DNA of 64,000 nucleotides from Minisyncoccia bacterium (lineage in GTDB: Bacteria; Patescibacteriota; Minisyncoccia; UBA6257; 2-01-FULL-56-20), in contig JBEKRC010000003.1 of assembly GCA_049997875.1 (NCBI GenBank), positions 183,885 to 247,884 on the forward strand, written 5' to 3'. Below, in pieces: positions 27,601 to 46,908 of this stretch. The stretch's first letter is position 1, and every line of letters starts with the position of its first letter. The position numbers were made by a program, and so were the translations under genes. The notes under the pieces are model-generated. The model saw nothing but the letters and a program-made list of their open reading frames with translations. It was not told where the DNA came from and did not search any database.

Positions 27601-28602
27601 CTACAAGAAGTGAAGGATGAGCCTCACGAGCGCGAAGCATACGAGTCCGATTATGACAAGATACGGAACCAACTGGAACCTCCAGTCCGGCGTGGGTGGA
27701 AGCTTTTGCGTGCTGTAGGCCGCAAGGCGTTCGTTCCCGGCCTTGTCGATCGCCCGAACCTCGATCATGCCGTCAAGGTTCTGATTTCTAATAAGATAGG
27801 GACTTATAGCCCGGATCCAGTTCCACTGGCTCTCCGGCAGACCAAGATCCTTCGTCGGTACCTCGGCAACCTCGTAATGGTCCACGCCTGTCTGCTTGTC
27901 AACCGTGGAAAAGACGGCAAAAAGCTGACCGTCAAAGAGCATGGGGTTACGGTACACGCGCACCGCGAAGGGTTCCGGAGGAGTCGTATCGCTCTCAATC
28001 GCATTCTCCAGAGCGCTCAAGGGCGCGTATTCCCCCTTCAAGAGCTCGGTATAGGTCGCGCCGCCGAGAGAGAGCTTGGCCAACGTTCCCAAACCGTCGT
28101 TTAACACCGCTTCCGTCGTGCTTTCGAAGGCGAGACTTGCCGTGAGGGGTATGCTGCTTGACGTAATAGCGGTGGACGTTGGAAAACGGAAATAAATCGT
28201 GGCCAGTTTGTTGCTCAACGAGGGATCGCCCGCCACGCGGCCGCAGTATCCGCCGGGCAAGCCGCCCACAAAGGACACAAGGCCGTAATCCTCATAGATG
28301 GTCGGCTGCTTCACCCACAGCGAAAAGATGGAATTGCCATCGCCCACATCCACCGCGTCAAGGATGTTCTTCGGGTACGCGAGGTCAACCTCCGCGGCGT
28401 TCACGCACTGGCTCCCGTTGTCCAACCGGACGTCCACGCCGAAGGTCACGCCCGGAGGGAACTTCCCCGTCGCGGGATCAAGATAGATCTGGGCCGCATG
28501 CGCGAACCCCGTCCCCATCATGACGACCGCAGGAAAAAGAACGGCAAGAATCTTAATCTTCATCAAGGGCACCTTCATCATATCACAGGTCAGCCGGTCC
28601 AA
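27601..28602 (-). CDS. membrane-anchored surface protein with N-terminal cohesin-like domain
   Basis: Signal peptide; AQIYLDPATGKFPPGVTFGVDVRLDN...NSIFSLWV...LATIYFRF resembles the cohesin pattern; C-terminal TM helix (LVPYLVIIGLVCFALVRLILHFL). Confidence 0.5.
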   Translation of the reverse strand: MDRLTCDMMKVPLMKIKILAVLFPAVVMMGTGFAHAAQIYLDPATGKFPPGVTFGVDVRLDNGSQCVNAAEVDLAYPKNILDAVDVGDGNSIFSLWVKQPTIYEDYGLVSFVGGLPGGYCGRVAGDPSLSNKLATIYFRFPTSTAITSSSIPLTASLAFESTTEAVLNDGLGTLAKLSLGGATYTELLKGEYAPLSALENAIESDTTPPEPFAVRVYRNPMLFDGQLFAVFSTVDKQTGVDHYEVAEVPTKDLGLPESQWNWIRAISPYLIRNQNLDGMIEVRAIDKAGNERLAAYSTQKLPPTPDWRFQLVPYLVIIGLVCFALVRLILHFL

Positions 28603-29741
28603 TAGAAAAGCATGATGCTCAGGTCTTGAAGGCCGACTTTATGGTCGCCGCTCAGCTCGGCGGGCGGATAGTCCGTGCCCCAATAGTAAAGGAGGATCGA
28701 AAAATCGGCGAGATTGACCCTGCCATCGCCGTTCAGGTCCGCGAGGACCGCTTTCCCACGGCCATTGTTACCGACATAAAAAGAAATAGCTTGGCTCACC
28801 GTGCTGCGGGCGACGGCGCCGTTCTGCGTCGTGATAAAGTCGGCATCAACCGTGTGAAATGCATTATTATCGAGCGGCGCGGTATCTATCGCCATTTTCC
28901 AATTTCCTTCCTGATCGGTGCTCGTCGTAAGCACGATATTTTTCCCCGAGTGGACATAGGCTTCAACGGTGACGGACGGGACCGATTGTCCGGAAATCGT
29001 AAGCGCATCCCCCTGCTTCGCCTGCCGTTTGTCTATGGAGATGGTGGGCGGAAGAAATGCGCCCGACACCGTCGTCACCGCACCTGCCGTGATCGTAAAG
29101 GTCGTCGTAAACGCGATTGATTTCAAGCCCGACGAATCTTCTGCCCAAAAGCCGAAGGTGGTGGCGCCGGGCGAAACGTTGGTCGTTGAAAAGTAAAAGT
29201 TCGCGCTTGTGTCGGCCTGCACGATACCGATGAGCGCGCCGTCCTTCAAAATATTCACGCTCGCGCCCGGGTACGCCTCGCCACGCACTATCACCTGGGT
29301 CTGCTTCGGCGACGAGTAACTTCCGCCAGAATATCCGCCGCCGCCAGCCGGCGCAGACCCCGGCAACGGCGCGAGAGATTCAATCTGGCACGTGGCCGAG
29401 CAGCCGGAACCGGTCGTCCCGTTCAAAGCGCCGGCATCGCACTGCTCACCGTACTGCGGTTGGAGAATGTCGTCGCCGCAATAGGGCCCCCACCCGCTGC
29501 AATCCGGCAGGCAATTCCTCCCCGCCGTGGAGGTCGCGTAGAGCCCGCTGTCCACCCCGTCGTCGCATACCTCAATGGGCGGCGTCACGATGCCATCGCC
29601 ACAGACGCTGACTAAGATCGTTGTCGTCGCCGAGAGCGATTGGGCAAACGCCACGTGCGCGCATAGCCCGACGCCGAAAAAACCCAGGGATATAAAGGCC
29701 GCGAGCCGGCCATCACTTATTTGGCGAAGGGGGCGGTGCAT
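28590..29741 (-). CDS. secreted protein with Cys-rich (CGDG...CDDG) repeats and C-terminal dockerin-like domain
   Basis: Start set at the internal Met giving a classic signal peptide (MHRPLRQ...LGFFGVGLCAHVAFA/QS). CGDGIVTPPIEVCDDG motif. C-terminus ADLNGDGRVNLADFSILLYYWG...DLSIMLFYWTG is a duplicated dockerin Ca-binding loop. Confidence 0.6.
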   Translation of the reverse strand: MHRPLRQISDGRLAAFISLGFFGVGLCAHVAFAQSLSATTTILVSVCGDGIVTPPIEVCDDGVDSGLYATSTAGRNCLPDCSGWGPYCGDDILQPQYGEQCDAGALNGTTGSGCSATCQIESLAPLPGSAPAGGGGYSGGSYSSPKQTQVIVRGEAYPGASVNILKDGALIGIVQADTSANFYFSTTNVSPGATTFGFWAEDSSGLKSIAFTTTFTITAGAVTTVSGAFLPPTISIDKRQAKQGDALTISGQSVPSVTVEAYVHSGKNIVLTTSTDQEGNWKMAIDTAPLDNNAFHTVDADFITTQNGAVARSTVSQAISFYVGNNGRGKAVLADLNGDGRVNLADFSILLYYWGTDYPPAELSGDHKVGLQDLSIMLFYWTG

Positions 29742-30744
29742 ACACGCGATCGCGGTGACGGCTTGACCGCTTCTTTCGGATAAGCCGGCGGATGCCCCTA
29801 AGAACCCCGTACAGGAAAGCGAGAATAAGAACCGCAATGCCGAATGTTATCGCTTTTTCGTTCCATTTGAGGCCCCAGAAACCATATCCGCTGTAGCCCG
29901 TAAGGGTGCCGGGCGGCAAAACCGCGAGGTCAAGCATTCCCTGACCGATGACATCGCCATCGTCCTTCCCGTAGATCTTATAAAAGACACGGTAGCTGCC
30001 CTGGGGCAGATAGGTCGGCATCTCGGCGACGACCTCCTTCCTTTGAAAAGGCCGCACCGAATCAAGTCCGTTCGTATTTTCCTCGGTCTCAAGCGTCGTC
30101 CCGCTCAAATATTCGTCGTATTGAAATACCACCTTGTGCGGCGACCCGGGAATATTCCCCGTATTCTCCACGTCCATGGTGAACAGGACCTTTCCAGGAA
30201 AGTGCATCCACCAGAACGAGTGCCCTTCTTCGGTGTTCGTCATGGCCACGCGGTTAACTTTCAACTTCGCCATTCTGCTGTCGATAACCTGGAGGTCAAC
30301 GTCGATCTGGGCGCCGATCGTAATGCCGATTGTGCCCGACGTCGGGGGAGCAAGCGGGGAAACCACCACCCGGATATTTCCCACGTAGTGACCGAGTTTC
30401 GCGTCGCTTGGGACATTCACGCTCACGAGTATCGGGACTTGCTGCACTCCCGTCGGCATCGTGAACTGCGTCCCGCGGTCGATGGATATCCAACTGTCCG
30501 CCCCCGGCACGTCAATCGAAATATTCGCGCGAAGGTCTTGCGTCGGATTGCTGCGGACCAAAAGGATGGCTTGCTCATAATGGGAGTTTTGTACGAGCGA
30601 GCCGTTTGTCACGTACGGCGGCGTTATGCCGAACCCATCCGCGCGCACCGGCAAAGCCGCCCGCAGACACAAAACGAACATTGCGAACGCAATAAAAAGA
30701 AAAAGAGGCGCCTTTTCCCTCCACAACCCCGTCATCTTCCCCAT
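29713..30744 (-). CDS. surface protein, DUF916/CscA-like architecture (signal peptide, beta-rich ectodomain, C-terminal TM plus basic tail)
   Basis: Signal peptide; N-terminal FGITPPYVTNGSLVQNSHYEQAILLVRSNPTQDL (fsv.P..p.nq...v.v.N pattern); C-terminal TM FGIAVLILAFLYGVLRGIRRLIRKKR. Confidence 0.5.
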   Translation of the reverse strand: MGKMTGLWREKAPLFLFIAFAMFVLCLRAALPVRADGFGITPPYVTNGSLVQNSHYEQAILLVRSNPTQDLRANISIDVPGADSWISIDRGTQFTMPTGVQQVPILVSVNVPSDAKLGHYVGNIRVVVSPLAPPTSGTIGITIGAQIDVDLQVIDSRMAKLKVNRVAMTNTEEGHSFWWMHFPGKVLFTMDVENTGNIPGSPHKVVFQYDEYLSGTTLETEENTNGLDSVRPFQRKEVVAEMPTYLPQGSYRVFYKIYGKDDGDVIGQGMLDLAVLPPGTLTGYSGYGFWGLKWNEKAITFGIAVLILAFLYGVLRGIRRLIRKKRSSRHRDRVYAPPPSPNK

Positions 30745-30779
30745 GATAGCACGGGACGGGAGAAACTCAAGGCATTACA

Positions 30780-32645
30780 TTACCAACTGGAAGGAGCGCT
30801 CCGCTGGGCAACGAACGTATTTTGGCCAGTGTAGTTGCCGGCGAGCAGAATCGAACTCGGGACCGAGATGCCCCAATAAGTTGCCCCTAAGGACGACGTT
30901 GCCGTTGATGTTGACTTGGGAATCTGGATGGCGAGCAACGCCCCGGGATTCACGAGCAACGCGGTGCCCGATGCATAGACCACACCGGAGGTGGCGTAGG
31001 TTATCTGCCCGACCGGGATGGTGGACGTCGTGGAAACCGGACAGCTCGGATAGGTAGTACACATCGAAGTGCCGTATAGCGTTTCGTTGAGGCCGAGATT
31101 GCCGAGTTCGGAGAGCGTCGTCGTCTGGGCCAAGGTCGGAGTCGTGGAGCCCGAAGACAGGGACCCGAAATTTATGCTCGGCGTATTGAGCTGCGAAGCA
31201 AGGAAGCTCAACACGGTACTGGTATTGGCGCTCGTGACGACCGTACTCGTCATGCCCACGTAATTCGTTGCCTGGACAGCCGCAGCCCAATTTTGATTGT
31301 AATACTGGGTGCTCGTCGCAGTGCCATCGGTGGGATCCGTGACGTACCAGAGCGGAAAGGTACAAGTCCATTGCGACGTGATTGAACTTGATCCAGCGCA
31401 CGAGCCGCCGTTCTGGGAACAGCTCCAATTCCATGTGGATGTGCCTATGGCCGCCGGATAACAATTGTTGGGATTGTAATTTCCGGATGACGAGCAATTC
31501 CCGAGGCCGATGCCAGAACGGAAAATGTCAATGCTCGCAGTCGCGACCTCTTGCCCGCCCACGGACGTCAAACAGCTGTTGTTGTCGGATGCCGTGAAGG
31601 TCACCTGGAAACCGGTCGTCTGCCCTCCCGGGTTTGTGAGCGAAAGCAGCGTGGTAGAACCGGTCGTGTTCAGCAAATTAATGCTGGACGATGCGATCGT
31701 CGGCGCAACCGCATTCACTGTTTCGGTTGCGTTCGTCCCCTGCGCGCCGCCGGAAGGAGGTACCAGAAACTGGTCAATGATGTAGCCATATGAGGAATAT
31801 CCGTTGTCCTGCGTTGGGATTGAAATGGTGGTCGTGCATGTGGGGTTGAGCGTGATGCCGGAGGTGGGCGAAGAGCAATATGTTCCACCAGGGCCGCAGG
31901 CCGTGCCCGTGAAGTCCGTCGCCTTGCAAACGAAAAGTTGGATGGTGGTAGTGGACCCCGTGAAGGTATCGCTGCTTGAGGCAGTGGCCGTCCACGTCAC
32001 GACGGCTCCCGGATTAGCCGGGGAATTGTTTGAGAACGCAGTGAACCGTGGACGGTGGTCCAAAACGAAAGGAGATGCCGTGTTCCCGCTTCCCTGCTGG
32101 TACGTGTTATTGCATCTCGGATTGAACGCGTTACCGTCGCAGATCCAAGCGAACCAAGCGTTGAACTGCGCGTCGGTTGATGACGGGGTATATGTTGACG
32201 TCGCATTGGTCCCGCTCGGGGTTGAGGTGGAAACCGCCCATTGGTTGCTCGCGCCCCCCCCGCAGGTCGGCGGGGCGCTGGCGTTCGCCGTCGGCGTGCT
32301 GCTTGATTTGCAAATCAAAAGATAGTAATTGTTCCCGTTCGGGCTTGTCCCTACCGCGACCCAGCTGATGGGAATCCCGACCACTGCCGGGCTGCTCGTC
32401 GTGTAGGGAGCAGCCTCCTGGGCGTTCACCGTCCAAAGCGGCGGCGTATTCAAAACCGTCAGGGTTGTCGTCGCGGTGCTCTGTGCCATTGCGAACCTTG
32501 CCGGACGCAAGGAACCAGTTGCCCAGAAGTTCACTGCGAGGATCGCGAAGGCCGTGAGCACGCCGAGCACGAGCACTAAAGCAGCAACCCGCCCGTGCGT
32601 ATCACGAAGGCACTCCTTAAGTTGCCGGGAATTGAAAAATTTCAT
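30780..32645 (-). CDS. giant secreted T/S/N-rich surface protein with conserved C-terminal module (class A)
   Basis: 621 aa with signal/TM at the N-term. The last ~120 aa (..NFGSLSSGSTTPTLA..LGNLGLNETLYGTSM..ATYWGISVP..GNYTGQNTFVAQRSAPSSW) are homologous to the C-terminus of the 36871..39432 product. Confidence 0.5.
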   Translation of the reverse strand: MKFFNSRQLKECLRDTHGRVAALVLVLGVLTAFAILAVNFWATGSLRPARFAMAQSTATTTLTVLNTPPLWTVNAQEAAPYTTSSPAVVGIPISWVAVGTSPNGNNYYLLICKSSSTPTANASAPPTCGGGASNQWAVSTSTPSGTNATSTYTPSSTDAQFNAWFAWICDGNAFNPRCNNTYQQGSGNTASPFVLDHRPRFTAFSNNSPANPGAVVTWTATASSSDTFTGSTTTIQLFVCKATDFTGTACGPGGTYCSSPTSGITLNPTCTTTISIPTQDNGYSSYGYIIDQFLVPPSGGAQGTNATETVNAVAPTIASSSINLLNTTGSTTLLSLTNPGGQTTGFQVTFTASDNNSCLTSVGGQEVATASIDIFRSGIGLGNCSSSGNYNPNNCYPAAIGTSTWNWSCSQNGGSCAGSSSITSQWTCTFPLWYVTDPTDGTATSTQYYNQNWAAAVQATNYVGMTSTVVTSANTSTVLSFLASQLNTPSINFGSLSSGSTTPTLAQTTTLSELGNLGLNETLYGTSMCTTYPSCPVSTTSTIPVGQITYATSGVVYASGTALLVNPGALLAIQIPKSTSTATSSLGATYWGISVPSSILLAGNYTGQNTFVAQRSAPSSW

Positions 32646-32656
32646 AATTTGTAGAG

Positions 32657-32830
32657 TTTTCTTACTACTATTTTAGCAGAAAAGCGTTACTTCAAGGGCG
32701 AAGTTATCCACAGGGAGCTATTTGCATATCCACAGGGGGCTAAGGGCTTTCTTACTACCATTTTAACAGGAAAAGCGTTACTTCAAGGGCGAAGTTATCC
32801 ACAGGGAACTATTTGCATATCCACAGGGAG
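32657..32830. repeat. ~91-bp tandem direct repeat (2 units) in the intergenic promoter region
   Basis: The unit TTTCTTACTAC(T/C)ATTTTA(G/A)CAG(-/G)AAAAGCGTTACTTCAAGGGCGAAGTTATCCACAGGGA(G/A)CTATTTGCATATCCACAGGG is repeated at 32657 and 32748. Confidence 0.85.
32704..32825 (+). promoter_or_regulatory. cluster of four DnaA-box-like sites (2x TTATCCACAGGG, 2x ATATCCACAGGG)
   Basis: Perfect TTATCCACA at 32704 and 32795, ATATCCACA at 32726 and 32817. The pair sits 22 bp apart within each repeat unit, 55-185 bp upstream of the 30780..32645 start codon. Confidence 0.5.
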
Positions 32831-34033
32831 TTACTTGTACCTGATCGCCTCGAGCGGGCTAATAGACGATGCCCGTCGTGCAGGGAAAATGCCGGTAATA
32901 AAACCTACGATTGCCGAAAAAACAGTAATGAAACCCAAAAAAGTGAGCGGAAAACTGAAAAGCTGCACGGCCGTCCCCCCGTAATGCGCCGCAACAAGAT
33001 TGAGAATATAATTGATTATCAGCCCGCCGGCAATTCCCATGGACATCCCGACCATGCCGCCCAGAAATCCCACGACGACCGCCTCGGCAAGGAAAAGAAT
33101 CTGGATGTCCCCTGGCGAAGCGCCCAACGTTCTCATAACACCAATCTCGTTCGTTCGTTCGAGGAGCGTCACCGTCATTGTATTGAACATGCCGATGGCG
33201 GACACGACGAGCGCGATGCCGCCGAAGCAGGCCAGGACGATCTGCACCCCTTGGAAGATCTGGTTGGCCTGCTCCACGGTCTTCGAAAGCGCCGTCACAA
33301 TGAAACCCTGTTTTACAATCTCGTCCTGGATGGCGTTCAGCGCCCCGCTTCCCGTCGCGCGCACCTGGGCGCCATCATAGAATGGAATGCCTACCTGCGC
33401 CGCAAGGGTTGCGAGCGGAATCATAACGTAGATGGAGGAAACGTCGGTCGTCACCCCCTTCACCATAAAGCTCCCGTTCAGAACGACCTGGTCGGCCCCG
33501 GCGGCGTTGCTGGTTTGGACGAACACCCGGAACGTGACTGTCCTGCCCAGAATGTCGCGTGGATCGTTAATGCCGAAGAGTTTGAGAGCGGCGCTTGAGA
33601 GGATAACGCGCGTCTGATCGGCCGAGGCATCCGTAAAGGGTTCGCCCGCCGCCATCGCAATGCCGGCATACTTGAAATACGACGCGCGCACTCCTTGAAG
33701 ATCGGCATTCGCGCTCAACGCATCAATGGTAATGAGCGAGGAGAATTTGGCGAGCGGCGAAACATCCTGGACATTCGGGATGGTTTTGAAATTTTCTATT
33801 GCCGCATCCGTGAGCGTCACTGCCTGTGACGGCGGGTTGCTTACGCTCAGGCTTAACAGGGTGTCACCGAAAACAATTTTCTCAAGCAAGACGTTTTGTA
33901 GGCCGAAACCAAGTCCCACAAGCATGACGACGGCAGAGGTGCCGACGCCCATGCCGAGGATCGTAAGCCATGTCCTCGCAGGATTGGTCTTGAACATTCT
34001 CGTTGAAAGTTTTATGGCATCGCTTGCGCGCAT
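32831..34033 (-). CDS. MacB/FtsX-family ABC transporter permease
   Basis: 400 aa; N-terminal TM, large extracytoplasmic domain, C-terminal 3-TM FtsX module (RTNEIGVMRTLGAS motif). Confidence 0.85.
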   Translation of the reverse strand: MRASDAIKLSTRMFKTNPARTWLTILGMGVGTSAVVMLVGLGFGLQNVLLEKIVFGDTLLSLSVSNPPSQAVTLTDAAIENFKTIPNVQDVSPLAKFSSLITIDALSANADLQGVRASYFKYAGIAMAAGEPFTDASADQTRVILSSAALKLFGINDPRDILGRTVTFRVFVQTSNAAGADQVVLNGSFMVKGVTTDVSSIYVMIPLATLAAQVGIPFYDGAQVRATGSGALNAIQDEIVKQGFIVTALSKTVEQANQIFQGVQIVLACFGGIALVVSAIGMFNTMTVTLLERTNEIGVMRTLGASPGDIQILFLAEAVVVGFLGGMVGMSMGIAGGLIINYILNLVAAHYGGTAVQLFSFPLTFLGFITVFSAIVGFITGIFPARRASSISPLEAIRYK

Positions 34034-34035
34034 GG

Positions 34036-35346
34036 TCAGAGATAAAGGCCTTGGGCCAATAATTTTTCAAGATATCGCGCCGCGCCCCGCGCATGATCCG
34101 AATCGAGGCCGATGCCGCCTGCTTCAAGACTGGTTTGCAACCGGCGACGGAAGTCATCCTGCTCTATAAAACCGCGAATACGGAACTTAAGGAGCTCGTC
34201 AAACCGTTCCTTTTGCTCAGGAGACAGCGAAAGCCCGCACTCCCGGATGACATCTTCCCGCACGGTGGCAAGCCGCTCCGCCTGCTTGGGCGAGATGACC
34301 CGGGCCTCGAAATTATCCCGATAAACCCTAATTTCCCGAGCCTCTTTGAGTATGGTGTTTATCTTATCCTCAAAGAGCTTCGCCTGCTCCTTATGGATGC
34401 CTACTCCACCCTCCTCCATGTCCTTGATAAGTAAGGCCCTGAACCCCTCGTCGGTGAGCTGCCCCTCAAGGAACATCTCCACGGACTTCTCAAGATGCTG
34501 GATCTCTTCAAATCCGATGTCCTGCGTTAGGAAATTCACGATGCTTTTCACCCGGAGATCATCTGGCGTGGCGTAGGGATAGATGCGCGCGAGCTTCTCA
34601 ATCTCCGAAAGCACCGATGTCCCCGGGTCGGTCTGCTTGATCTGCTTCCGCTCCGGATTGATCACCTCGCGTTCCACCTGGCCGTCTTTCAGATAATAGA
34701 CGCGGTGCGCATAGGGCAAAAGTTTCGCGTCGTGCGTGACGAGAATCACGGTTTTCTCATCTTTCACGTTGATCTCCTCAAGCGTGCTCATGACCTGATC
34801 CGCCGAAACGCTGTCCAAGTTCCCCACCGGCTCATCGGCAAAGAGGATCTCCGGATTGTTCGCAAGCGAGCGAGCGACCGCGACGCGTTGCGATTGTCCA
34901 CCCGAGAGGTCCGTGGACTGCTTGTGCGCCTGTTGGTCCACGCCGAAGCGCGTGAGGAGCTGCATCCCCCGCTTGTTGCGCTCGGTCTTGCCCACACCCG
35001 CGAAAATGAGCGGCAGGGCAACATTATCAAGCACGGAAAGCGACGGGATAAGATTGAACGATTGATAGATGATGCCGACGATCTTGCGCTGGAAATGCGC
35101 CATCTGCTGCACGTTGTAGCGGTAGATATTGTCCCCCTTCACGATCACCTCGCCGGATGAAGGCGGGAGAATTCCAAGGAGCGAATAGAGAAGCGTTGAT
35201 TTTCCGCAACCGGACGGACCGAAGAGGACGATGTACTCGTTTGGATAGATATCCAGACTCTCGCCGCGCAGCGCGTAAAACTCGTTGGACTTGCCCTCGT
35301 TATAGACGACTCTCACATTCCTGACCTTGATGATAGGTTCGATCAT
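34036..35346 (-). CDS. ABC transporter ATP-binding protein (MacB/LolD-type) with ~200-aa C-terminal helical extension
   Basis: Walker A GPSGCGKST, signature LSGGQSQRVAVAR, Walker B ILFADEPVGNLD. The extension contains the internal repeats ...EEGGVGIHKEQAKLFE... and ...EAGGIGLDSDHARGAARYLE.... Confidence 0.88.
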   Translation of the reverse strand: MIEPIIKVRNVRVVYNEGKSNEFYALRGESLDIYPNEYIVLFGPSGCGKSTLLYSLLGILPPSSGEVIVKGDNIYRYNVQQMAHFQRKIVGIIYQSFNLIPSLSVLDNVALPLIFAGVGKTERNKRGMQLLTRFGVDQQAHKQSTDLSGGQSQRVAVARSLANNPEILFADEPVGNLDSVSADQVMSTLEEINVKDEKTVILVTHDAKLLPYAHRVYYLKDGQVEREVINPERKQIKQTDPGTSVLSEIEKLARIYPYATPDDLRVKSIVNFLTQDIGFEEIQHLEKSVEMFLEGQLTDEGFRALLIKDMEEGGVGIHKEQAKLFEDKINTILKEAREIRVYRDNFEARVISPKQAERLATVREDVIRECGLSLSPEQKERFDELLKFRIRGFIEQDDFRRRLQTSLEAGGIGLDSDHARGAARYLEKLLAQGLYL

Positions 35347-35351
35347 AAAAA

Positions 35352-36845: not shown

Positions 36846-36870
36846 ATACCTATAGTCTATCAGAGTCTTC

Positions 36871-39432
36871 CTACGGCCACGGCAGCGAGTTGCGCACACC
36901 GATGAATGTATTCACGCCGGTATAATCTCCCGACGATTGTGGCACGGGCAGGCTGACGCCCCAATAAAGCGCGGCGCTCGCAGGATTGGCAGATGAGGTG
37001 GTCTTCGGAATCGCGAGCAACGTCGTAGTTCCCGGGCTTGGAAGGAGCGAGTTCCCCGACGCGTACGCGACCATCGAGGTCGCGTAATCCTGCGCTCCCA
37101 CGCCCAGGCTGCTCGAGCCGCTCGTCATGTTCGTGCCATACAGAGTGACGTTCAGCGAAACGTTCCCGAGCGACATGATAACGGTGGGAATGGCAAGCGA
37201 CGGCGTTCCCGATCCGGGCGCGAGGGACCCGTAGCTGATCGATGAGGTCATCTGGAGGCCGACGAGCGAAAGTAACGGTATGCCGGTTGACGTTGCGACC
37301 GACGACGTGGCGCCTTCGGCATCGGTTGCCTGGACGGCCGCCGACCACGAATCCCCCGCCCATGGCGTTCCGGAGTCGGTCGGCTGCGCAAAATACCAAA
37401 GATTCGCCCCGCAGGTCGCCGTGCACGCGGTGGCGTAACACAAGCTCAACGCACAACTCACGTTCCGGTAGCAATCGTTGTTGTCTGCGGTGCAACTCGG
37501 GCCGAGGCTCGTGCGATAGAATGTTGCCGTCGTTGTCGAAAGGTCGGTGTAACCGTTCGCGTCGCTCACAGTCGCCGTCGCCTGGATGAGCGTTGTCGTT
37601 CCCGCGACAAGCGAGATATTGCTGCCGCTGTTGCCGATCAAAGTGACATTGCTTGCCGAGGGCGCCACCTCGCCTATCACAATCTGGGGGTAAACGGCAT
37701 AGGAAGCAAACACGGTGCCGCTCGCCGTCACAGCCCTGAAACAATAGTCCGCTCCGACCTTCGCGCCGTTATCAGCGAGCGAAAGGTCCCACTTCCCGTC
37801 CGCTGCGGCCGGGATCGGACCTTGCGAGTTCGTGAACGGGTTTGAGGCGTCGTAGGTTTGGATCACAATGGTGCTCGAGCCGTCCACGGGGTCGGTGGTC
37901 GTGGGTGTGAGCGGTGACCCGTCCGTGACGCCGGCATTCGCATAATATTGGACAAGACCGCTTGACGTGGCGACGTTCGTATAACTCGCGGGATTCCCTC
38001 CCGAGGGTGCCGCGCAGTTCCCCGTCCCCGCTTCAACGTATTGCAGGTTGAACGACTGCGTGTTTGAGTCAACCTGGCTTCCCGCAACGCGGATGAGGAT
38101 GCGCAGGCGGAAGGTGGAGCTTGTGACAAGCTGGGCCGTCGCCGTCGCGTTCTGTGCTGCCAAGGGCAAGCCAACCGAAGTGGAAGCGATGTTCGCGAAC
38201 CACCTATAATCCGCAAGCGTGAAGCTCGGCGGGCTTTCCTCGCTTCCCTCCGTAATGAAGGTTCCGGGCGAGTTTTCGTCGTTGTATTCGGTCTGGATCC
38301 AGTTCAGAGGACGGATGATCTTGGAAATGCGAACTTCGTCTATCTTTCCCTTGAAGTAGGAGGTCCATGCCTGGTGGTAACCGATCGTCGTGCTCGCAAG
38401 GCCCGTCAAAGGCGACGTGTCGGAGCCTGTCCCTCCCTTTCCTGTGGTCGTGGCGGAACCGTCGACGTAAACGCTGAATTGAGTGCTTGTTACGGATGTC
38501 CCGGAAGCTGCCGCCCACGTGCCGACCACGTAGTGCCACTGTCCGTTATTGATCGCCGTATTGCTGGCTTCCACACCGATCCAGATGTTGGCGGAGTCGT
38601 CGCCGAACATCAATTTGCCGGTGGAGCTCGGGATCCCCATGAACTGGTTGCCGCAGCCCGTGCTGCCGCACGAGCCGTTCCCATCCAAGGCAAGCGTTAA
38701 AGAATGGCCGGCTCCCGAGCCCCTGTCCTGGACGATGACGCTTGTTGTTGATACGGTGCTTGAAACATTAACCCATGCCTCAATCGTTTCTGCAGTCGAA
38801 GACGATTGGAAGAGCGGCGTCGTGATATCCTGGCTGGAACCGTTCAGATTGACCGCGCCGTCTATTTTTCCGGCGGTCGACGTAGCGCTGCCCACTATGG
38901 TCCCGTTGTTCGCGTTCGCCGTGGAGTCCTTTGCGGAAAGCGTTGAGGTGCCGGTTGTCGGGAGGTGCCACACCCCCGAGTAGTTGCTGTCCCATGTGTT
39001 CGTGGGAGTCTGTAAGCTCGTCGTCGAGGAAGGATTGTTGTAGTACATGTAGAAGAGCGTATTCGTCGAGGTAGAGACCGTGGGGAGCTTCACCCATGCT
39101 TCAAGCTCACCGGTGCTTGATACGTAATGTTCTATCTCAAAATTAAGGAGGGACACGCCATCCGAGTTCGTGAAAAGAATATCGCTGCCGCTCGCCACGG
39201 TCTCCGCCGCGAGGTTCGTATCCGAGGCGATGCCCACAAGAACGGGGAAGTTGGATATGGTAGACGTGGTGCTCGAAGAAACCTGCGAATAGTTTACCGT
39301 TAAAAGCTTGCGGTGCAGCCACGCGGTGTTGTACCACTGTGACGCGCGGGCCGTAGAGAATGGCGCAAGAAGTGCGCCCGCAACGAGCAGCGCGCCAAGT
39401 AAAAAAAGTGCGTTTCGCGAAGGGCCAGGCAT
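36871..39432 (-). CDS. giant secreted protein: DUF2341 plus LamG/concanavalin-like domain plus class-A C-terminal module
   Basis: WLHRKLLTVNY...ISNFPVLVGIASDTNL...GSDILFTNSDG..LNFEIEHY (DUF2341 pattern), then WHYVVGTW...FSVYVDG...GKIDEVRIS (Laminin_G_3 pattern). The C-terminus is homologous to 30780..32645. Confidence 0.65.
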   Translation of the reverse strand: MPGPSRNALFLLGALLVAGALLAPFSTARASQWYNTAWLHRKLLTVNYSQVSSSTTSTISNFPVLVGIASDTNLAAETVASGSDILFTNSDGVSLLNFEIEHYVSSTGELEAWVKLPTVSTSTNTLFYMYYNNPSSTTSLQTPTNTWDSNYSGVWHLPTTGTSTLSAKDSTANANNGTIVGSATSTAGKIDGAVNLNGSSQDITTPLFQSSSTAETIEAWVNVSSTVSTTSVIVQDRGSGAGHSLTLALDGNGSCGSTGCGNQFMGIPSSTGKLMFGDDSANIWIGVEASNTAINNGQWHYVVGTWAAASGTSVTSTQFSVYVDGSATTTGKGGTGSDTSPLTGLASTTIGYHQAWTSYFKGKIDEVRISKIIRPLNWIQTEYNDENSPGTFITEGSEESPPSFTLADYRWFANIASTSVGLPLAAQNATATAQLVTSSTFRLRILIRVAGSQVDSNTQSFNLQYVEAGTGNCAAPSGGNPASYTNVATSSGLVQYYANAGVTDGSPLTPTTTDPVDGSSTIVIQTYDASNPFTNSQGPIPAAADGKWDLSLADNGAKVGADYCFRAVTASGTVFASYAVYPQIVIGEVAPSASNVTLIGNSGSNISLVAGTTTLIQATATVSDANGYTDLSTTTATFYRTSLGPSCTADNNDCYRNVSCALSLCYATACTATCGANLWYFAQPTDSGTPWAGDSWSAAVQATDAEGATSSVATSTGIPLLSLVGLQMTSSISYGSLAPGSGTPSLAIPTVIMSLGNVSLNVTLYGTNMTSGSSSLGVGAQDYATSMVAYASGNSLLPSPGTTTLLAIPKTTSSANPASAALYWGVSLPVPQSSGDYTGVNTFIGVRNSLPWP

Positions 39433-39481
39433 GGGATATTACCTAAATTATAAAGTAATATCGCGGCATCCGCGACGGTCT

Positions 39482-41245
39482 TTATCTGATAACCACGTTG
39501 AACTGGCAGTAGTTCGGCAGGACGGTCCCGTCGGCCTGCCGTTCGTGATATACCACAACGACGGTATACGACCCCGGCACGGCGAACGGGGTGGTTTTAA
39601 GCACAATAGTGTCGCTGTCCGGCGCAGAGGTCGTAAGATACGAGCTTACGCCCGTGGGCAGGGAACCGACCGCGGCATCATACATGAATGCCGACGACGT
39701 TTTTGTTGAGGAAGGGATCTCTGGAGGGATAAGCTTCAGGAGAAACGCGACCGTGTCGCCGCGGGCGACGGAAGCTGAGAAGGGGTCCACCGAACATATT
39801 TGTTTGGCCCACGGACTGAAGACATTCTTGAACGCCTGTTCGGGCGACGGAATGTTTTGCGGAGGGGGCGCAGGGGGAGAGGGGCTCTCGCTCGCCGTTT
39901 CCGGCGCGGGAGACGGCATCACGTCGGTCGTATTATCAGGCGAATCAAGATAGTTCACTTCAACGCCCACGGAGTCAAGATAGACCTGCGGCGTGGAAGA
40001 CGAACCGAGCCCGACCAGGGCAACCTGCAGGTGGGAAAGTTCGTCCCATGAACGTATCGGAATAGGATAGCGCGCGACCTGCCAGTTCCCGGCATTCACA
40101 TTCACAACCGGCTGCCACGTGACCCCGTCCGTTGAATATTCAATGCTCAAGACGTCCTCCACGCTGCTTGAGGGCAACTCGATCGTCTTGAATATATCCG
40201 TGTCTACCGTCATTGTTCCGGTCGGCGCGGGAACGGTCGCCGTCGCAACGACGGCCGGAGGCGCGGACGAACTCTCGTCGGCATATGCGGCAGGGACCAA
40301 CTTCACCAACCACGAGGTTGGTGATGAATCCGTGTCCGTGGTGGAACTCTCGTCCGGGACCGACGCGGGAGCGGGGGCGGGCTCGGGGGCCGTGATGGAA
40401 TTCTCATTGGTATCGGTACTGGTCATATCGGTTGTGGAAGTAGGGGCAATGACAGTAGTGGTGGCGAGCGCCGCGGGGGTGGGTGTAGCCGGGAGCAAAT
40501 CCGTGGTTGTCGTGGTCGTCGTGGCCGGCACGGCACCCGTTCCGATATCCAATGTGCCCGATGCGGTTGTGCTTGTCCCCTCGTCAGGCGACGGTGGTTG
40601 GATTGAAGTTGAGGCCTCGTCCGGAGTCGGGGTCGGAGCCGGCACCACCCCCGTCACTCCCCCTCCGCCGCCGCCACTGCCCTCAACCGACGGAGAACTT
40701 GAAGCGGTTGATGATTGAGCGGGTACAACAGCCGCCGTCCCGCTTGCCGTGCCGCTCGCACTGCTCGCGACCGGAAATATAAAGTTCCAAGAAAGAATGA
40801 GATAAGCATTCTGAAAAGGTTTTGCCTGAAGCGATGCGATGTCCGCGTCACCCGAAAAATTGCCGCAGAATATTTGCGCCGTCCCTGTCCCGAAAAACGC
40901 TGAATTCGCGCCATTCCATGCCGACGGCGGCGAGCCGGGCGGCACATCCGGTTTCCCCAATGCATTCGCCACGTTTTGCCAATTCCCGAGACAGGAAGAA
41001 GGATAAAAATCCGCCGTGCTCGCGAATCCGATAAGAGCATAGCGAACAAATATCGGAACGACGATGAGCGTGAAAAGCAAAAAGAACGCCACCCTATGAT
41101 GCCGGATAAAACGGAGCACTTTTGTGCGGCTTATTTCAAAGCGCCAGACCTTTTCGCGCAACACGACAGTTTGCCCGGAGGAAGCGCGTCCGACATCGCT
41201 TACCGCGCGCTCTTTGCTATTCCCCTTTGAGCGCTTTGTCCACAT
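39482..41245 (-). CDS. membrane-anchored Thr/Pro/Ser-rich low-complexity protein with C-terminal globular domain
   Basis: N-terminal TM (VAFFLLFTLIVVPIFVRYALIGF), long TTTTTTT/GGGGGG/PAP linker, ~200-aa C-terminal domain. Start uncertain; placed at MMWTKRS to limit overlap with the upstream gene. Confidence 0.45.
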   Translation of the reverse strand: MWTKRSKGNSKERAVSDVGRASSGQTVVLREKVWRFEISRTKVLRFIRHHRVAFFLLFTLIVVPIFVRYALIGFASTADFYPSSCLGNWQNVANALGKPDVPPGSPPSAWNGANSAFFGTGTAQIFCGNFSGDADIASLQAKPFQNAYLILSWNFIFPVASSASGTASGTAAVVPAQSSTASSSPSVEGSGGGGGGVTGVVPAPTPTPDEASTSIQPPSPDEGTSTTASGTLDIGTGAVPATTTTTTTDLLPATPTPAALATTTVIAPTSTTDMTSTDTNENSITAPEPAPAPASVPDESSTTDTDSSPTSWLVKLVPAAYADESSSAPPAVVATATVPAPTGTMTVDTDIFKTIELPSSSVEDVLSIEYSTDGVTWQPVVNVNAGNWQVARYPIPIRSWDELSHLQVALVGLGSSSTPQVYLDSVGVEVNYLDSPDNTTDVMPSPAPETASESPSPPAPPPQNIPSPEQAFKNVFSPWAKQICSVDPFSASVARGDTVAFLLKLIPPEIPSSTKTSSAFMYDAAVGSLPTGVSSYLTTSAPDSDTIVLKTTPFAVPGSYTVVVVYHERQADGTVLPNYCQFNVVIR

Positions 41246-43004
41246 CATCAACTTCTTTTTGGATGGTGCTTTCGGAAACCGTGAGTGCGTTCCGCAGGGC
41301 ATCAAGCACATGTTCCGGTTCAAGCTTCTCCGCGCCTTGCGCCTGGGCGGCGCCGCCATCCATTTGGTTCACCTTTTCCTCAACCTCCTCGCGCAATGCC
41401 TCAAAGACCGCCTCCGTCTTTTCTCGTATTTCTTCGTTCTCGCGCTTCGCGAGCGCAAACTGCATATCAAGGATCTTCTTCCGGTAAAAGCCGAAGCCCA
41501 CAAGGCCCACGATCATGAAGAACAGGGCCACGATGACGGCCCACCCGAAGCGGTCAAGGAACGGTGCCGCGATCACGTTGATCTGCGTTTTGTCGGTGGA
41601 AGTGGCCGCCGCGCCCTGCGTTGTCACCATGGTGACGCCAAGATCGTAGTTCCCGGTCGGCAATCCGCCCTCAAGCGCAAAGAGCCAGTGGCCCGTCTGG
41701 TCTGCGACCATCTTCCCCTCTGTGACCACCTTTCCGCTGTCCAAAATGTCCACGGTTACGTTCGCATTGCTGTCGGCGATACCCTCAAGGACAATGGGCG
41801 ACCGCTCAATGATCGTCGCCGGGAAATTCGTGATCTTTGGCATCGCGATGCCCGGGATCTCGAACGCGGCGTGCGCCTCGGCGAAGTTCCCTGCCTTGTC
41901 CACGGCACGGATCACGACCGTGTGTTTCCCGGGCAGGAGGGGCGGCGCCGTGTAAACACCGTTCTGGATATCGGAAAGGGCAACGACCGTGGAACTCACG
42001 CCGTCGAAGTTCGCTTCATAGTGGTCAATGCCGGAAACCGTATCCGTCGCATTGAAAGAAAGCAGGGTGAGCCCGTTCAGACCGCCGCCCGGCTGCGCGT
42101 TCACCGTGAAAGGCTGGGGCGGCGCGAGATCGATCTGAACCTGGTAGTGAACGGGGTCGCTCCAGTTCCCGAGTGAATCCTCAAAGCGCACATGGAAGTA
42201 CGATACGCCTTCGTGAATGCCGGAGTATTGCTTTGACGATATGAGGCCTTCGGAAGAACGCTTTGGGTACGTGGTAGGACTCTTGTCAAATGCCGTACTC
42301 ACGCCGGCAACATCGGAGGTGAGCTGCCACGTGAAGGTGGGGCTGTCGTTCGCGTACCACTTTTGCTGATCGGGATGCGTGGGCGACGAGACGGCGATGG
42401 AAACGATGAACGGCGTCTCTGCGGGAGTTGAGGCGCCTCCGCTGGATGGAGGTTTCTCGGACGGCGATGTAGAAGCAGACACAGACGCAGGCGCAGTGCC
42501 CGTACCCGAACCGCCGATCGCGAAGCTCGCCGTCCCCGTGCCGCCCAAGACATTTGTTCCCTGCCCATCCGCCGCAAGCGACGACGCCGAAAGGAACTTA
42601 AGGCCCGCGGTGCCCGCGGCCTGCGCTTTGAACGTAATGCTCATTATGGTGCCGGCATTTCCGGCATACGCGCTCGTGACGCCGCCGCTGAAGTTCACCG
42701 TGCCGTCGGAGTTTGAGTACGAAGGATCTGCAACCCAAAGATTGAAAACAGAATTGTCCTTTGAGACGCTTTGCACCGCAAGGAGCGATGGATCAAAACT
42801 GATCTTCCCATCCGCGGCGTTTATGCCCACCCCGCCGCCGCTGTCCACGAGCACGTTCACCGTGAACGTGCTCCCTACGGCGTATGAGCCGCTTGAAGGA
42901 CCGAATGAGAGCGAAGCGCCGGCCGCAAGCACGGGCGCCGCGGGAACCACGAATCCTACCAACAAAGAGGTTGTCCCCACGGCGATGGCTGCGCCCCACC
43001 TCAT
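41217..43004 (-). CDS. cohesin-domain surface protein with C-terminal TM anchor and cytoplasmic coiled-coil tail
   Basis: Signal peptide; SLSFGPSSGSYAVGSTFTVNVLVDSGGGVGINAADGKISFDPSLLAVQSV...GTIMSITFKAQAAG (cohesin pattern); Ig-like repeats; TM GWAVIVALFFMIVGLVGFGFY followed by a charged helical tail. Confidence 0.6.
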   Translation of the reverse strand: MRWGAAIAVGTTSLLVGFVVPAAPVLAAGASLSFGPSSGSYAVGSTFTVNVLVDSGGGVGINAADGKISFDPSLLAVQSVSKDNSVFNLWVADPSYSNSDGTVNFSGGVTSAYAGNAGTIMSITFKAQAAGTAGLKFLSASSLAADGQGTNVLGGTGTASFAIGGSGTGTAPASVSASTSPSEKPPSSGGASTPAETPFIVSIAVSSPTHPDQQKWYANDSPTFTWQLTSDVAGVSTAFDKSPTTYPKRSSEGLISSKQYSGIHEGVSYFHVRFEDSLGNWSDPVHYQVQIDLAPPQPFTVNAQPGGGLNGLTLLSFNATDTVSGIDHYEANFDGVSSTVVALSDIQNGVYTAPPLLPGKHTVVIRAVDKAGNFAEAHAAFEIPGIAMPKITNFPATIIERSPIVLEGIADSNANVTVDILDSGKVVTEGKMVADQTGHWLFALEGGLPTGNYDLGVTMVTTQGAAATSTDKTQINVIAAPFLDRFGWAVIVALFFMIVGLVGFGFYRKKILDMQFALAKRENEEIREKTEAVFEALREEVEEKVNQMDGGAAQAQGAEKLEPEHVLDALRNALTVSESTIQKEVDDVDKALKGE

Positions 43005-43579
43005 ACCTTTGGTGCTTCGTTCTTCGATTCCCGGACGGGAAGCTTTTTCCCCTCCCCAAGCTTCTTTATGGGAAGAACAACAATGAGCACGCCGTGCTGC
43101 AAAAACGTTTCCGCTTCCCCGCCATCAAAAGGCGCAGGAAGGTACACTTTGCGGTAGAGGGGATCCCACTTGATCTCCTGTTTCACGAACCTGCCCTTTT
43201 CCGGTTCCGCTCCAGGCTGCGCCCCGTGGGGAGGTGGAACGTCCGGCCTCTTCTGTTTCGCTTGGATAAGAAGCGTGTTGGATTCCTCATCCGCCGTCAC
43301 ATCAAAATCTTCAGGGAAAACTCCGCCCGCCTGTACAAAAACCACCATCCGCGTGTCGGATTGGAAAAGATCGACCGTTAAAGAATCCGTACCTTCGGGT
43401 GCCGAATCGGGCGCTCCCGCCGGATCACCCGGAGGGTCCCCCTTTGGCGGATCGGCGGTCTTTGCCCCCGCTGCGTTGTACGAAACGCCTCTCGCCGCAA
43501 CCGACGCTGCCCCTTTTGCAGTCGCTGCGGCATCCTCCTTCTGCAACTTCGTCGATAGCTTTTCGTAAAAGGATGCCAT
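43001..43579 (-). CDS. Hsp20/alpha-crystallin-domain protein with Pro/Ala-rich N-terminal region
   Basis: LTVDLFQSDTRMVVFVQAGGVFPEDFDVTADEESNTLLIQAK...GVLIVVLPIK parallels the Hsp20 at 27078. Confidence 0.6.
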   Translation of the reverse strand: MASFYEKLSTKLQKEDAAATAKGAASVAARGVSYNAAGAKTADPPKGDPPGDPAGAPDSAPEGTDSLTVDLFQSDTRMVVFVQAGGVFPEDFDVTADEESNTLLIQAKQKRPDVPPPHGAQPGAEPEKGRFVKQEIKWDPLYRKVYLPAPFDGGEAETFLQHGVLIVVLPIKKLGEGKKLPVRESKNEAPKV

Positions 43580-43630
43580 GTGATTTCACTTTCAGTATAC
43601 CAAACCGAAACGGTTCTTGTATCCCCAGGA

Positions 43631-45319
43631 TCAACCCGTCCAATGGGAAAGCATAATACTGAGATCGGGGAGATCCACGACGCCATCATGATTCAGATCG
43701 CCGGGCGGCCAGTCTTGTCCCCAGTGAAAAATCAGGACGGAAAAATCCACAAGGTTTACCTTGCCGTCTCCGTTAAAATCCGGATTCCCGGTTTTCGGCA
43801 TCGGTTCTTGCCCCACGCCGAGGTATGTAATGCCCGAAAAATCGCTCACCTGCAGTCCCGGCACAAACGACCGCGCCTTGACCTCGTAGGTATCCACGGC
43901 AAAACCGGTCGTATCCACCGCGTAGGACCAGCGGCCGTCCTCTCCGGCTCCGGCGGTGACCTCCACGGGACTTTTGGCGCCTTGCTGGCTCGTCACCCAA
44001 ATCTCCACGGTGGACGACGGCTCGCTCTCACCCGAGATCGTGACCTTTTTGCCCGGCGCCACCGTGCTTGTCGCGAGCGAAACGCTCGGAGGCATCACGA
44101 GTCCCGTCACGCTGTTCGCCGTTCCGGCGACGATCGTCATCGTGAAGGTTTGCTCCGAGATGCGCTGTCCGTTGCCATCGTTGATGTAGAGCGTGAACGT
44201 GTATACTCCTTGCGCGAGCGAAGGAATATTGACCGTAAAATCTCCGTTCCCGTCCGACGTCGTGCGCTGCGGGACGGCCGTTCCGTCGCGGAGAACCAAT
44301 ATCTCGCTTGACGGCAATGCCACGCCATGGATGACAAGGGAAGGCGACGACGGGCCGGGCGGATACGGCGCCCCGCCCCCGCCCCCAGCGCCTCCGGCAG
44401 TCCCCCCGCTGCTTCCTACTCCCGTCGGACTGCCGGCCGTAAACGAAATCACATAATCGCTCTGGTTCTTATTGCCCGCGAAATCCACGCATCGAACATA
44501 GTAGGTATAGGTGACTCCCTGTGCGATACCGGTCACCGTGAATGTATGGAAGGTTCCCACCGAATTATCCGCAGTAAGATTTGTCATCGCATCATAGCTC
44601 ACGCCCGGTGTCGTCGCATAGCGGCAGAGCGCGTACGTATCCGTATCAAAGGAAGCTACCACTGCCAAAACATTCGATGGGATCGTGCCCGACGGCATCC
44701 CATTCGAGAGCACGGGAGGATTTACCCTGTTGGTATTCACTTCAACCCCCACGGCGGGAAGTATCACGACCATCGCCGCCCCGTAATCGATTGGCGCGCT
44801 CGCCACACTGTAGGTATTGATGAAAATACGGTAGGAAGCCGTCGAGGACGGATTCGTGATCTGATATGTCCCCATGGGAGCGTTTGTGCCCAAAAGGAGG
44901 CGCGCATGGGCGCCCGCCGGGATGCCGTTCCCCGAAGAAAGCGTGATCGCGATGGGTCCGGTAAGGGGCGTAATGGCCACGCCGTCGCTCACTGCATCCG
45001 GTGCTGCCGCGAGCGGCCTTTCCGTAAAGCCGGAGGTCGGCGACGAAGTGGAATAGGCAAGGTCCATGTCGCTGTAACTGAACGAAGGGTCAATCGCGAA
45101 CGGCGTGCCTTCAAAACTTATGACGATCTCCCCCGACGCGGGAACGGCATCCGGAACACTAAAAAGAACGGTGTGGTTCGCCGGGAACGACGGCCTTGAG
45201 TCCGTGATCGTGTCGCTCACGAAACTGAGTTGCGACGCGATCGCGTGTGACGCCACAGCGCCAAAAACGAGCGCCGCGCATACGGGACCAATGGAACACA
45301 ACTGGGATCGGAGCTTCAC
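43631..45319 (-). CDS. secreted FN3-containing protein with C-terminal dockerin-like domain
   Basis: Signal peptide. N-terminal domain similar to that of 46909..48060 (LSFVSDTITDSRPSFPANHTV vs LTAVSDTLSDSRPGWQANHTI). Middle region homologous to 28590..29741. C-terminus DFNGDGKVNLVDFSVLIFHWG...DLNHDGVVDLPDLSIMLSHWTG. Confidence 0.6.
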   Translation of the reverse strand: MKLRSQLCSIGPVCAALVFGAVASHAIASQLSFVSDTITDSRPSFPANHTVLFSVPDAVPASGEIVISFEGTPFAIDPSFSYSDMDLAYSTSSPTSGFTERPLAAAPDAVSDGVAITPLTGPIAITLSSGNGIPAGAHARLLLGTNAPMGTYQITNPSSTASYRIFINTYSVASAPIDYGAAMVVILPAVGVEVNTNRVNPPVLSNGMPSGTIPSNVLAVVASFDTDTYALCRYATTPGVSYDAMTNLTADNSVGTFHTFTVTGIAQGVTYTYYVRCVDFAGNKNQSDYVISFTAGSPTGVGSSGGTAGGAGGGGGAPYPPGPSSPSLVIHGVALPSSEILVLRDGTAVPQRTTSDGNGDFTVNIPSLAQGVYTFTLYINDGNGQRISEQTFTMTIVAGTANSVTGLVMPPSVSLATSTVAPGKKVTISGESEPSSTVEIWVTSQQGAKSPVEVTAGAGEDGRWSYAVDTTGFAVDTYEVKARSFVPGLQVSDFSGITYLGVGQEPMPKTGNPDFNGDGKVNLVDFSVLIFHWGQDWPPGDLNHDGVVDLPDLSIMLSHWTG

Positions 45320-46828: not shown

Positions 46829-46908
46829 AGTGTTATCTTACCATTAGGGAACGGCCCGAAGCAAGCACTCCGACGAGACTGCTTCGTTCGAAATTGCGCG
46901 TGAGGGTG

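Follow-up and report, generated by a model that had tools for sequence, protein, structure and literature searches.

Cellulosomes hold the closest described parallel to the system reported here. In their single-cohesin anchors, such as SdbA, Orf2p and OlpB of Clostridium thermocellum and ScaE of Ruminococcus flavefaciens, a secreted protein without an anchor of its own is caught, through the dockerin at its C-terminus, by a cohesin on the cell surface. The dockerin is a duplicated module of calcium (Ca) loop and helix. We analysed a stretch of 64,000 nucleotides from a Minisyncoccia bacterium (Patescibacteriota; assembly GCA_049997875.1, contig JBEKRC010000003.1, positions 183,885 to 247,884 of the forward strand), called the window below, in which the same kind of capture appears to be encoded. 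Two pairs of genes, docL with cohL and docS with cohS, each specify a secreted dockerin protein and a membrane-anchored cohesin protein. We argue that cohesin-dockerin binding probably tethers secreted, adhesin-like rods of immunoglobulin (Ig)-like domains, one to one, to type-I membrane stalks.

How do these pairs differ from a cellulosomal anchor? Cellulosomal anchors are held by SLH repeats or by LPXTG and sortase; here the anchor is a C-terminal transmembrane (TM) helix followed by a conserved cytoplasmic tail, and Pfam searches found no SLH or LPXTG match. The partner of a cellulosomal anchor is an enzyme-loaded scaffoldin, whereas here it would be a non-catalytic Ig-like rod, and the two genes are paired one to one in an operon. 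The putative recognition positions differ as well. In C. thermocellum dockerins these are Ser-Thr at loop positions 10-11 and Lys-Arg in the helix; here they are hydrophobic, Leu-Val at loop positions 10-11 and Leu-Tyr in the helix. The system is not a cellulosome or a multi-enzyme scaffold: each anchor has a single cohesin, the cargo is not enzymatic and no carbohydrate-binding module (CBM) is present.

Cohesins and dockerins are also found apart from cellulose degradation. Archaeoglobus fulgidus is one organism with non-cellulosomal modules. Bacteria, archaea and eukaryotes all include organisms with such modules (Peer et al. 2009, as cited in PMC5244752 and PMC10066038); these two papers describe non-cellulolytic cohesins and dockerins in anaerobic methanotrophic (ANME) archaea (PMC5244752) and in giant proteins of Omnitrophota (PMC10066038), and suggest a role in adhesion. 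The original prediction, which presented cohesin-dockerin pairs outside a cellulolytic context as the novelty of this locus, was therefore overstated as worded. What sets the locus apart is more specific. The non-cellulosomal reports (Peer et al. 2009, FEMS Microbiol Lett 291:1) are mostly domain censuses in which the partners are unknown, whereas here a pair of genes, dockerin to cohesin, recurs across the phylum with a defined topology. The glycoside-hydrolase (GH) toxin complexes of Clostridium perfringens (2OZN, 2JNK, 2W1N) and the amylosome of Ruminococcus bromii likewise use cohesins and dockerins for purposes other than cellulose degradation, and 2w1n, 2jnk and R. bromii Amy12 are among our structure and sequence matches. 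In both, enzymes are joined to other enzymes or to a scaffoldin; here no enzyme is involved and the cohesin is embedded in the membrane. In the open-access literature that we searched, we found no description of a one-to-one dockerin-to-cohesin operon in Patescibacteria, nor of a membrane cohesin with a conserved tail, a dedicated small heat-shock protein (sHSP) gene and a DUF916-like island as its setting.

Between 27.6 and 55.9 kb of the window every gene lies on the minus strand and encodes a secreted or membrane product. Within this island of about 28 kb of surface-protein genes lie two paralogous, operon-encoded cohesin-dockerin pairs. The four open reading frames (ORFs) named in the original prediction are all present: docL (43631..45319), cohL (41217..43004), docS (28590..29741) and cohS (27601..28602). 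Each dockerin gene neighbours a cohesin gene, as had been claimed. docS and cohS overlap by 13 nt, and docL is separated from cohL only by an HSP20-like gene, hsp20B (43001..43579), which begins after a gap of 51 nt and itself overlaps cohL by 4 nt. About 13 kb lie between cohL and cohS. Counts in a promoter and terminator scan of positions 27000-46900 did not exceed those in shuffled sequence, so the operon boundaries are drawn only from overlapping and abutting ORFs; tRNA and Rfam scans of the window found nothing. By hydropathy, all four proteins begin with a signal segment, and only cohS and cohL end in a TM helix. A search of all six frames of the window with a regular expression for the dockerin loop found matches in the docL and docS genes only.

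cohL is a type-I membrane protein of 595 amino acids (aa). It consists of a signal peptide, a cohesin, a disordered linker (residues 167-195), three beta domains, a TM helix and, in the cytoplasm, a conserved helical tail of about 90 aa. The cohesin (about residues 28-165; 42510..42923, minus strand) occupies the membrane-distal end. It scores 46.8 bits against Pfam Cohesin (PF00963, cut-off 24.1) over residues 39-151, and 50.6 bits when the domain is searched in isolation; Big_13 and DUF7743 are the further Pfam domains of the protein. An AlphaFold2 (AF2) model built on a 65-sequence alignment has a mean predicted local distance difference test (pLDDT) score of 83.9. Residues 30-163 form a predicted nine-strand beta domain with pLDDT above 90, and the three further beta domains follow the linker. 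A helix at 482-548 contains the TM segment (about residues 482-505), and a second helix spans 563-593. The TM helix and helical tail (41220..41561, minus strand) had both been predicted from the letters alone, and hydropathy and the model agree on them.

Is the N-terminal domain a true cohesin? A profile of 22 N-terminal modules from both cohesin families has cohesins as all five of its best matches in the Protein Data Bank (PDB): 4ums_A (8e-4), 5m2o, 5g5d, 5aoz and 5lxv. Taken individually, 15 of the 22 members match Pfam Cohesin. A search of the PDB with the single cohL sequence (phmmer) gave no meaningful match, so the family profile was needed. Family-invariant residues fall in strand 3 (INAA), in strand 5 (W..P) and at the end of or just after strand 8 (LAADGQGTN); presumably these strands belong to the dockerin-binding 8-3-6-5 face of type-I complexes of the 1OHZ kind. 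Homologues with as little as about 30% identity still have the order of parts seen in cohL: signal peptide, cohesin, linker, a domain with 'SSPTHPDxxKWY', a domain with 'SGIDHYE...AVDKAGN', Big_13, TM helix and tail. The tail itself carries a family motif, KRETxE...F.ALREEV...KEI.DVEK.

docL (562 aa) is a secreted protein with a signal peptide, an N-domain (28-186), an FN3-like domain, a Gly-rich linker, two Big_13/Big_6 Ig domains and a C-terminal dockerin. The dockerin module (about residues 508-562; 43634..43798, minus strand) has two segments of Ca-loop and helix 27 residues apart and ends in WTG directly before the stop codon; its sequence runs DFNGDGKVNLVDFSVLIFHWG...DLNHDGVVDLPDLSIMLSHWTG. 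The loops match the regular expression at 43745-43780 and 43664-43699. Both carry Asp, Asn, Asp, Asn or Asp, and Asp at positions 1, 3, 5, 9 and 12. The Dockerin_1 (PF00404) score is 28.4 bits, over the cut-off of 22.9. In the AF2 model (pLDDT 80.9), five beta domains precede two terminal helices (523-531 and 550-561). The best PDB matches of a profile built from 25 C-terminal modules are cellulosomal dockerins without exception (2y3n_B, 1.1e-8; 1daq, 2e-7; 2mte; 5nrm); the alignments span both segments, and calmodulin-type EF-hands rank far below. The two segments are near-identical at the helix positions, which would be compatible with a dual binding mode.

The short pair has the same plan. 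cohS (333 aa) is a type-I membrane protein with a hydrophobic signal segment, a cohesin (about 28033-28497), a DUF7743-like beta domain and a C-terminal TM helix at residues 315-333. Like cohL, it has one cohesin. docS (383 aa) is secreted and has a signal peptide, a head of Cys-rich repeats (TIGR02232, 41.9 bits), two Big_6 Ig domains and a C-terminal dockerin (28593-28757) with the sequence DLNGDGRVNLADFSILLYYWG...ELSGDHKVGLQDLSIMLFYWTG; DUF4215 and Big_6 are its other Pfam matches. Its ORF can be extended to a TTG at 29837, and the ATG at 29741 yields a proper signal peptide. Profile alignment identifies the two pairs as paralogues: residues 28-296 of cohS align to 21-379 of cohL (hhalign probability 100%, E 3e-47), and residues 130-383 of docS to 306-562 of docL (probability 100%, E 5e-80). 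Neither docL nor docS matched an enzyme fold or a CBM in Pfam or in fold searches; both are all-beta and Ig-like.

If the two genes of a pair work together, they should be found together elsewhere. Relatives of cohL occur in at least 427 species genomes in a pattern-limited scan of one genome per species, nearly all titled Patescibacteria, Parcubacteria, Falkowbacteria, Nealsonbacteria or Wolfebacteria, with a few implausible bin labels. An exhaustive search of 1.84 billion cluster representatives with a cohL hidden Markov model (HMM) gave 6,440 matches at E ≤ 1e-30. More than 110 of the best 150 are single-stretch matches of 560-630 aa, and full-length cohL relatives form hundreds of clusters at 50% identity. 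Seventeen metagenome contigs contain the locus of the window itself. At NCBI, the protein identical to cohL is titled 'MAG: cohesin domain-containing protein [Minisyncoccia bacterium]', and NCBI also names 'dockerin type I ... [Patescibacteria]' proteins. The class Minisyncoccia belongs to Minisyncoccota, which is the validated name of the Patescibacteria. Ten contigs with this Patescibacteria-specific cassette bear the title 'uncultured Gammaproteobacteria' or 'Deferribacteres', apparently through mislabelled bins.

We followed the linkage of the genes from both sides. Starting from the cohesin, we translated 79 loci and searched them with all island proteins of the window. Upstream sequence of 1.5 kb or more is available in 64 loci, each from a different species, and 62 of these have a dockerin gene upstream on the same strand; the count takes in one locus where the dockerin and cohesin genes overlap by 69 nt. 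The distance between the genes is less than 900 nt in 57 loci, so that they are adjacent or separated by hsp20 only. All 65 dockerin-gene neighbours end in ...DxNxDGxVNLxDFSIxxxxW...DxNxDGxVxLxDFSIMxYxWTG-stop, with the loops 27 residues apart. Starting from the dockerin, we scanned metagenome contigs with the dockerin profile and took the best 80 loci, 72 of them testable and 8 untestable. In all 80 the product is of the docL or docS type, has the dockerin at its very end and keeps the paired-loop pattern of the 65 neighbours; a cohesin gene follows on the same strand in 66 of the 72.

These loci fall into two arrangements, and the window holds both. Module A reads p383 (one or two copies), three DUF916-like genes, p132, docL, hsp20, cohL. 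Module B reads (FN3, ABC, FtsX), p621, the DUF916-like p343, docS, cohS, cohL.

The cohL family also has variant forms. In seven proteins of 800-900 aa a cohS-like unit is fused ahead of a cohL-like one. Unless they are read-throughs of gene calling, these would be two-cohesin, multi-pass membrane proteins, and they recur across several 50%-identity clusters, a hint of the Rosetta-stone kind. No other two-cohesin forms were seen, and the fusions are confined to some lineages. Four other cohL homologues are called with an N-terminal four-helix-bundle domain of the '23S rRNA-intervening sequence protein / bAvd-like' type, which suggests that in some lineages an Avd-like gene, instead of hsp20, precedes cohL or is fused to it, with a possible link to diversity-generating retroelements.

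What would such pairs do? In the mechanism that we favour, and consider likely, docL and docS would be exported by their signal peptides; neither has an anchor of its own. Each has a variable N-terminal head on two Ig-like domains that end in the compact dockerin. cohL and cohS each hold a single cohesin at the membrane-distal tip of a short beta-sandwich stalk. The dockerin would plug into the neighbouring cohesin, presumably in a Ca2+-dependent manner. The Ig-like rod would thereby be held out, without a covalent bond, on a stalk rooted in the membrane and crossing the thin wall, and the variable heads, whose role may be adhesive or structural, would do the actual work. This plug-and-socket idea was already part of the original prediction, which had surface adhesins or enzymes tethered to the membrane. 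It is backed by conserved adjacency in both directions and by the presence of a membrane anchor on the cohesin proteins alone; the suggestion of enzymes finds no support, the cargo being non-catalytic Ig-like rods.

Several results weigh against this mechanism, and they are best taken with the alternatives that they favour. The first alternative accepts the domains as real and denies that neighbours are partners. The cohesins would capture dockerin proteins from other loci, perhaps enzymes as an amylosome or cellulosome does, or else dockerins or other ligands of the host cell, and the adjacent genes would merely be co-regulated. The window is only 64 kb of the genome. No cohesin gene lies nearby in 6 of the 72 testable dockerin-first loci. 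The pairing is ambiguous in module B, where two cohesin genes follow a single dockerin gene. The protein search with the dockerin profile, which bears on the range of cargo, returned almost only short fragments of 50-110 aa. Against this stand the uniform docL- and docS-type products of the best 80 dockerin-first loci, none of them an enzyme, and an adjacency of about 92-97% in both directions across many lineages. Dockerin-borne enzymes are absent from the window.

Co-variation bears on the same question. In docS/cohS pairs the subtype of the first dockerin helix (SIAAYWYKR versus SILLYWWG) tracks the subtype of cohS, distinguished by whether the protein carries a GGIPGGYCGxxPGDPG insertion: 32 pairs are concordant and 6 discordant (Fisher p = 4e-5). 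Over 35 module-B loci, dockerin distances correlate with those of the cohesin domains of cohS and cohL at r = 0.64 and 0.76, and with those of the cohL Ig stalk at r = 0.42. The partial correlation that controls for non-binding domains is 0.33 for both cohesins (Mantel p = 0.001). We take these statistics as suggestive only, because shared phylogeny confounds and inflates such tests, and they indicate no preferred cohesin for docS. Weighing the tracking of subtypes with the adjacency, we think it improbable that the neighbours are not partners.

The second alternative is that the domains are merely cohesin-like and dockerin-like: a generic beta-sandwich and a Ca2+-stabilised module of the EF-hand type that fold each on its own and do not interact, their gene order reflecting a common pathway of secretion or assembly. 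The borderline Pfam scores of the short pair favour this view. The Pfam check proposed at the outset holds for the long pair, which scores above the cut-offs. cohS, over residues 46-167, scores 24.1 bits, exactly the cut-off, and the docS dockerin scores 16.9 bits, below it. Both secreted proteins had been predicted to end in duplicated dockerin loops; this is true of docL, and the first loop of docS is canonical as well. The second docS loop, ELSGDHKVGLQD, is degenerate: it reads Glu, Ser, Asp, Gly and Asp at the Ca positions, with the canonical residues lost at positions 1, 3 and 9. Pfam Cohesin misses some family members altogether. The empty single-sequence search with cohL points the same way, as do the EF-hand proteins among the weaker matches of the dockerin profile. 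The E-value of the cohesin profile, 8e-4 at best, is modest. A Foldseek search with full-length cohL was dominated by proteins with tandem generic Ig domains; its match at rank 19, 2w1n, a cohesin and FN3 construct of C. perfringens GH84C, counts on the other side.

Why, then, do we consider it very unlikely that the modules only resemble cohesins and dockerins? The PDB entries that rank first with the two profiles are genuine cohesins and dockerins, and calmodulin-type EF-hands fall below them. The duplicated 22-residue segments sit at the extreme C-terminus, as is typical of dockerins. The most conserved residues of the cohesin lie on strands 3, 5 and 8.

A classical polysaccharide-degrading complex, in which the island would harvest glycans with two tandem GH130 enzymes of the mannoside phosphorylase type and a secreted GH18 (all at 21759-26134, adjoining the island, with GH18 1.5 kb from cohS and the GH130 genes next), scarcely deserves credence: LamG and DUF2341 domains in the island can bind carbohydrate, but none of the three enzymes has a dockerin, the GH130 proteins have no signal peptide, GH18 is found in none of the 79 related cohesin-first loci, and the window contains no CBM, no multi-cohesin scaffoldin, no dockerin-bearing hydrolase and, as had been claimed, no cellulase.

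One-to-one tethering says nothing of the cytoplasmic side, where the long pair has a feature of its own. hsp20B (579 nt, minus strand) lies between docL and cohL and encodes a cytoplasmic protein resembling sHSPs. Its Pfam HSP20 (PF00011) score of 20.6 bits is just below the cut-off of 20.8. Alignment to the family of hsp20A, a canonical sHSP (63 bits), gives an hhalign probability of 99.9%, and places an alpha-crystallin domain in hsp20B; genes at the same position elsewhere score 57-77 bits against hsp20A. hsp20A itself (27078..27554, plus strand) is convergent with cohS and abuts it. Of 17 dockerin-first loci, 15 have an hsp20 gene between docL and cohL, and so do the module-A loci found from the cohesin; none of 48 docS-cohS pairs has one in between. 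In one protein HSP20 and cohL are fused, a further hint of the Rosetta-stone kind. The sHSP gene fixed between docL and cohL and the conserved helical tail of about 90 residues that the anchor retains together suggest a cytoplasmic partner or coupling.

The remaining genes of the island are of two recurring kinds. TM-anchored proteins resembling DUF916/WxLIP stand beside anchorless secreted proteins, and domains are common to members pairwise. Upstream of docL in module A (45340..51778, minus strand) lie p132, a small protein with two TM helices; p365, p415 and a 335-aa gene product (49446-50453), all three TM-anchored and DUF916/WxLIP-like; and the secreted p383 and p441, as assigned by Pfam and synteny. 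Upstream of docS in module B (29713..32645, minus strand) are the TM-anchored, DUF916/WxLIP-like p343 and the secreted p621, with synteny in nine loci. Further upstream (32831..39432, minus strand) come a MacB-type ABC transporter of FtsX permease and ATPase, a secreted protein with four FN3 domains and a DUF2341 and LamG protein, assigned by Pfam and by synteny in nine loci, among them the five closest relatives. p343, p365 and p415 are mutually homologous (p365 to p343, hhalign probability 99.3%). The C-domain of p621 is common to that of the LamG protein (100%), and those of p383 and p441 are related (99.6%). The N-domain of docL is homologous to that of the anchorless p383 (99.2%, E 2e-19).

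This setting recalls the WxL/Csc loci of Lactobacillales, which consist of DUF916/WxLIP and WxL proteins and a small anchored protein. The island likewise has three to four TM-anchored DUF916/WxLIP-like proteins, anchorless secreted partners and a small membrane protein. Csc loci are without cohesin or dockerin, however, and the WxLIP_PGBD scores here are below the Pfam cut-off of 27.3 bits (p365, 21.5; p415, 16.1). p383 homologues (L079:2672-3706 and L023:526-1545; 46909-48060 in the window) end in ...LQEAGDYSNTLTY(I/V)CTPTY, which to our eye resembles the C-terminal WxL motif of Firmicutes surface proteins, a resemblance only and unsupported by Pfam: no Pfam WxL domain was found in six members of the p383 and p441 families at E up to 10. 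We dropped the designation of the island as a WxL locus on this account and keep the term DUF916-like, as a sub-threshold assignment.

The S-layers of archaea offer a functional analogy only. In Sulfolobus SlaA/SlaB, a TM and coiled-coil stalk carries a secreted outer protein of many Ig domains. There is no sequence relationship to the proteins described here, which show no sign of a lattice and whose coupling would be by cohesin and dockerin. 7ptp and 8qox appear among the matches of the fold searches; we attribute them to the generic similarity of Ig strings, and an S-layer was rejected as the main claim.

Could the cassette be part of something larger? We entertain, as a tentative idea that we do not expect to hold in full, that it is the core anchoring device of a surface apparatus specific to Patescibacteria, possibly an outer layer or a structure for attachment to the host. 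The docL head, given its homology to the p383 N-domain, might recruit p383 and p441; the DUF916-like proteins might complete the assembly; and the cohL tail, with the sHSP, might couple it to the cytoplasm.

Three further features of the window were noted. The intergenic space that separates the FtsX permease gene from p621 is taken up by a direct tandem repeat of 91 bp (32658-32828; 1.9 copies with 95% identity), possibly a regulatory region that was duplicated. Immediately downstream of cohL, and overlapping it, a gene at 39482-41359 encodes a low-complexity protein of 588-625 aa, rich in Ser, Thr, Pro and Ala, with one N-terminal TM helix and no Pfam match; it is kept in the five closest relatives. 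Between the last gene of the island and rmuC, the GC content falls to 0.47 (55917-57072) from about 0.57. This stretch holds a gene for an RNA-binding protein of the RNA recognition motif (RRM) type (56368-56706) and about 450 bp that contain no ORF and have no Rfam match.

The ultra-small Patescibacteria, or candidate phyla radiation (CPR), account for much of bacterial diversity. They are episymbionts that live on other cells, and their surface and attachment proteins are largely unknown. Should binding fail, the finding would be one more census entry of cohesin-like and dockerin-like domains. If the pairs do bind, cohesin-dockerin biology would extend to tethering that is membrane-integrated, one-to-one and non-enzymatic. 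A compact dockerin of about 55 aa and its single-cohesin partner, possibly of orthogonal specificity, may then be of use in protein engineering. For the organisms themselves, this two-gene plug and socket provides concrete candidates for pull-downs, for labelling in cryo-electron tomography and for transposon sequencing (Tn-seq) in the few representatives that can be cultivated.

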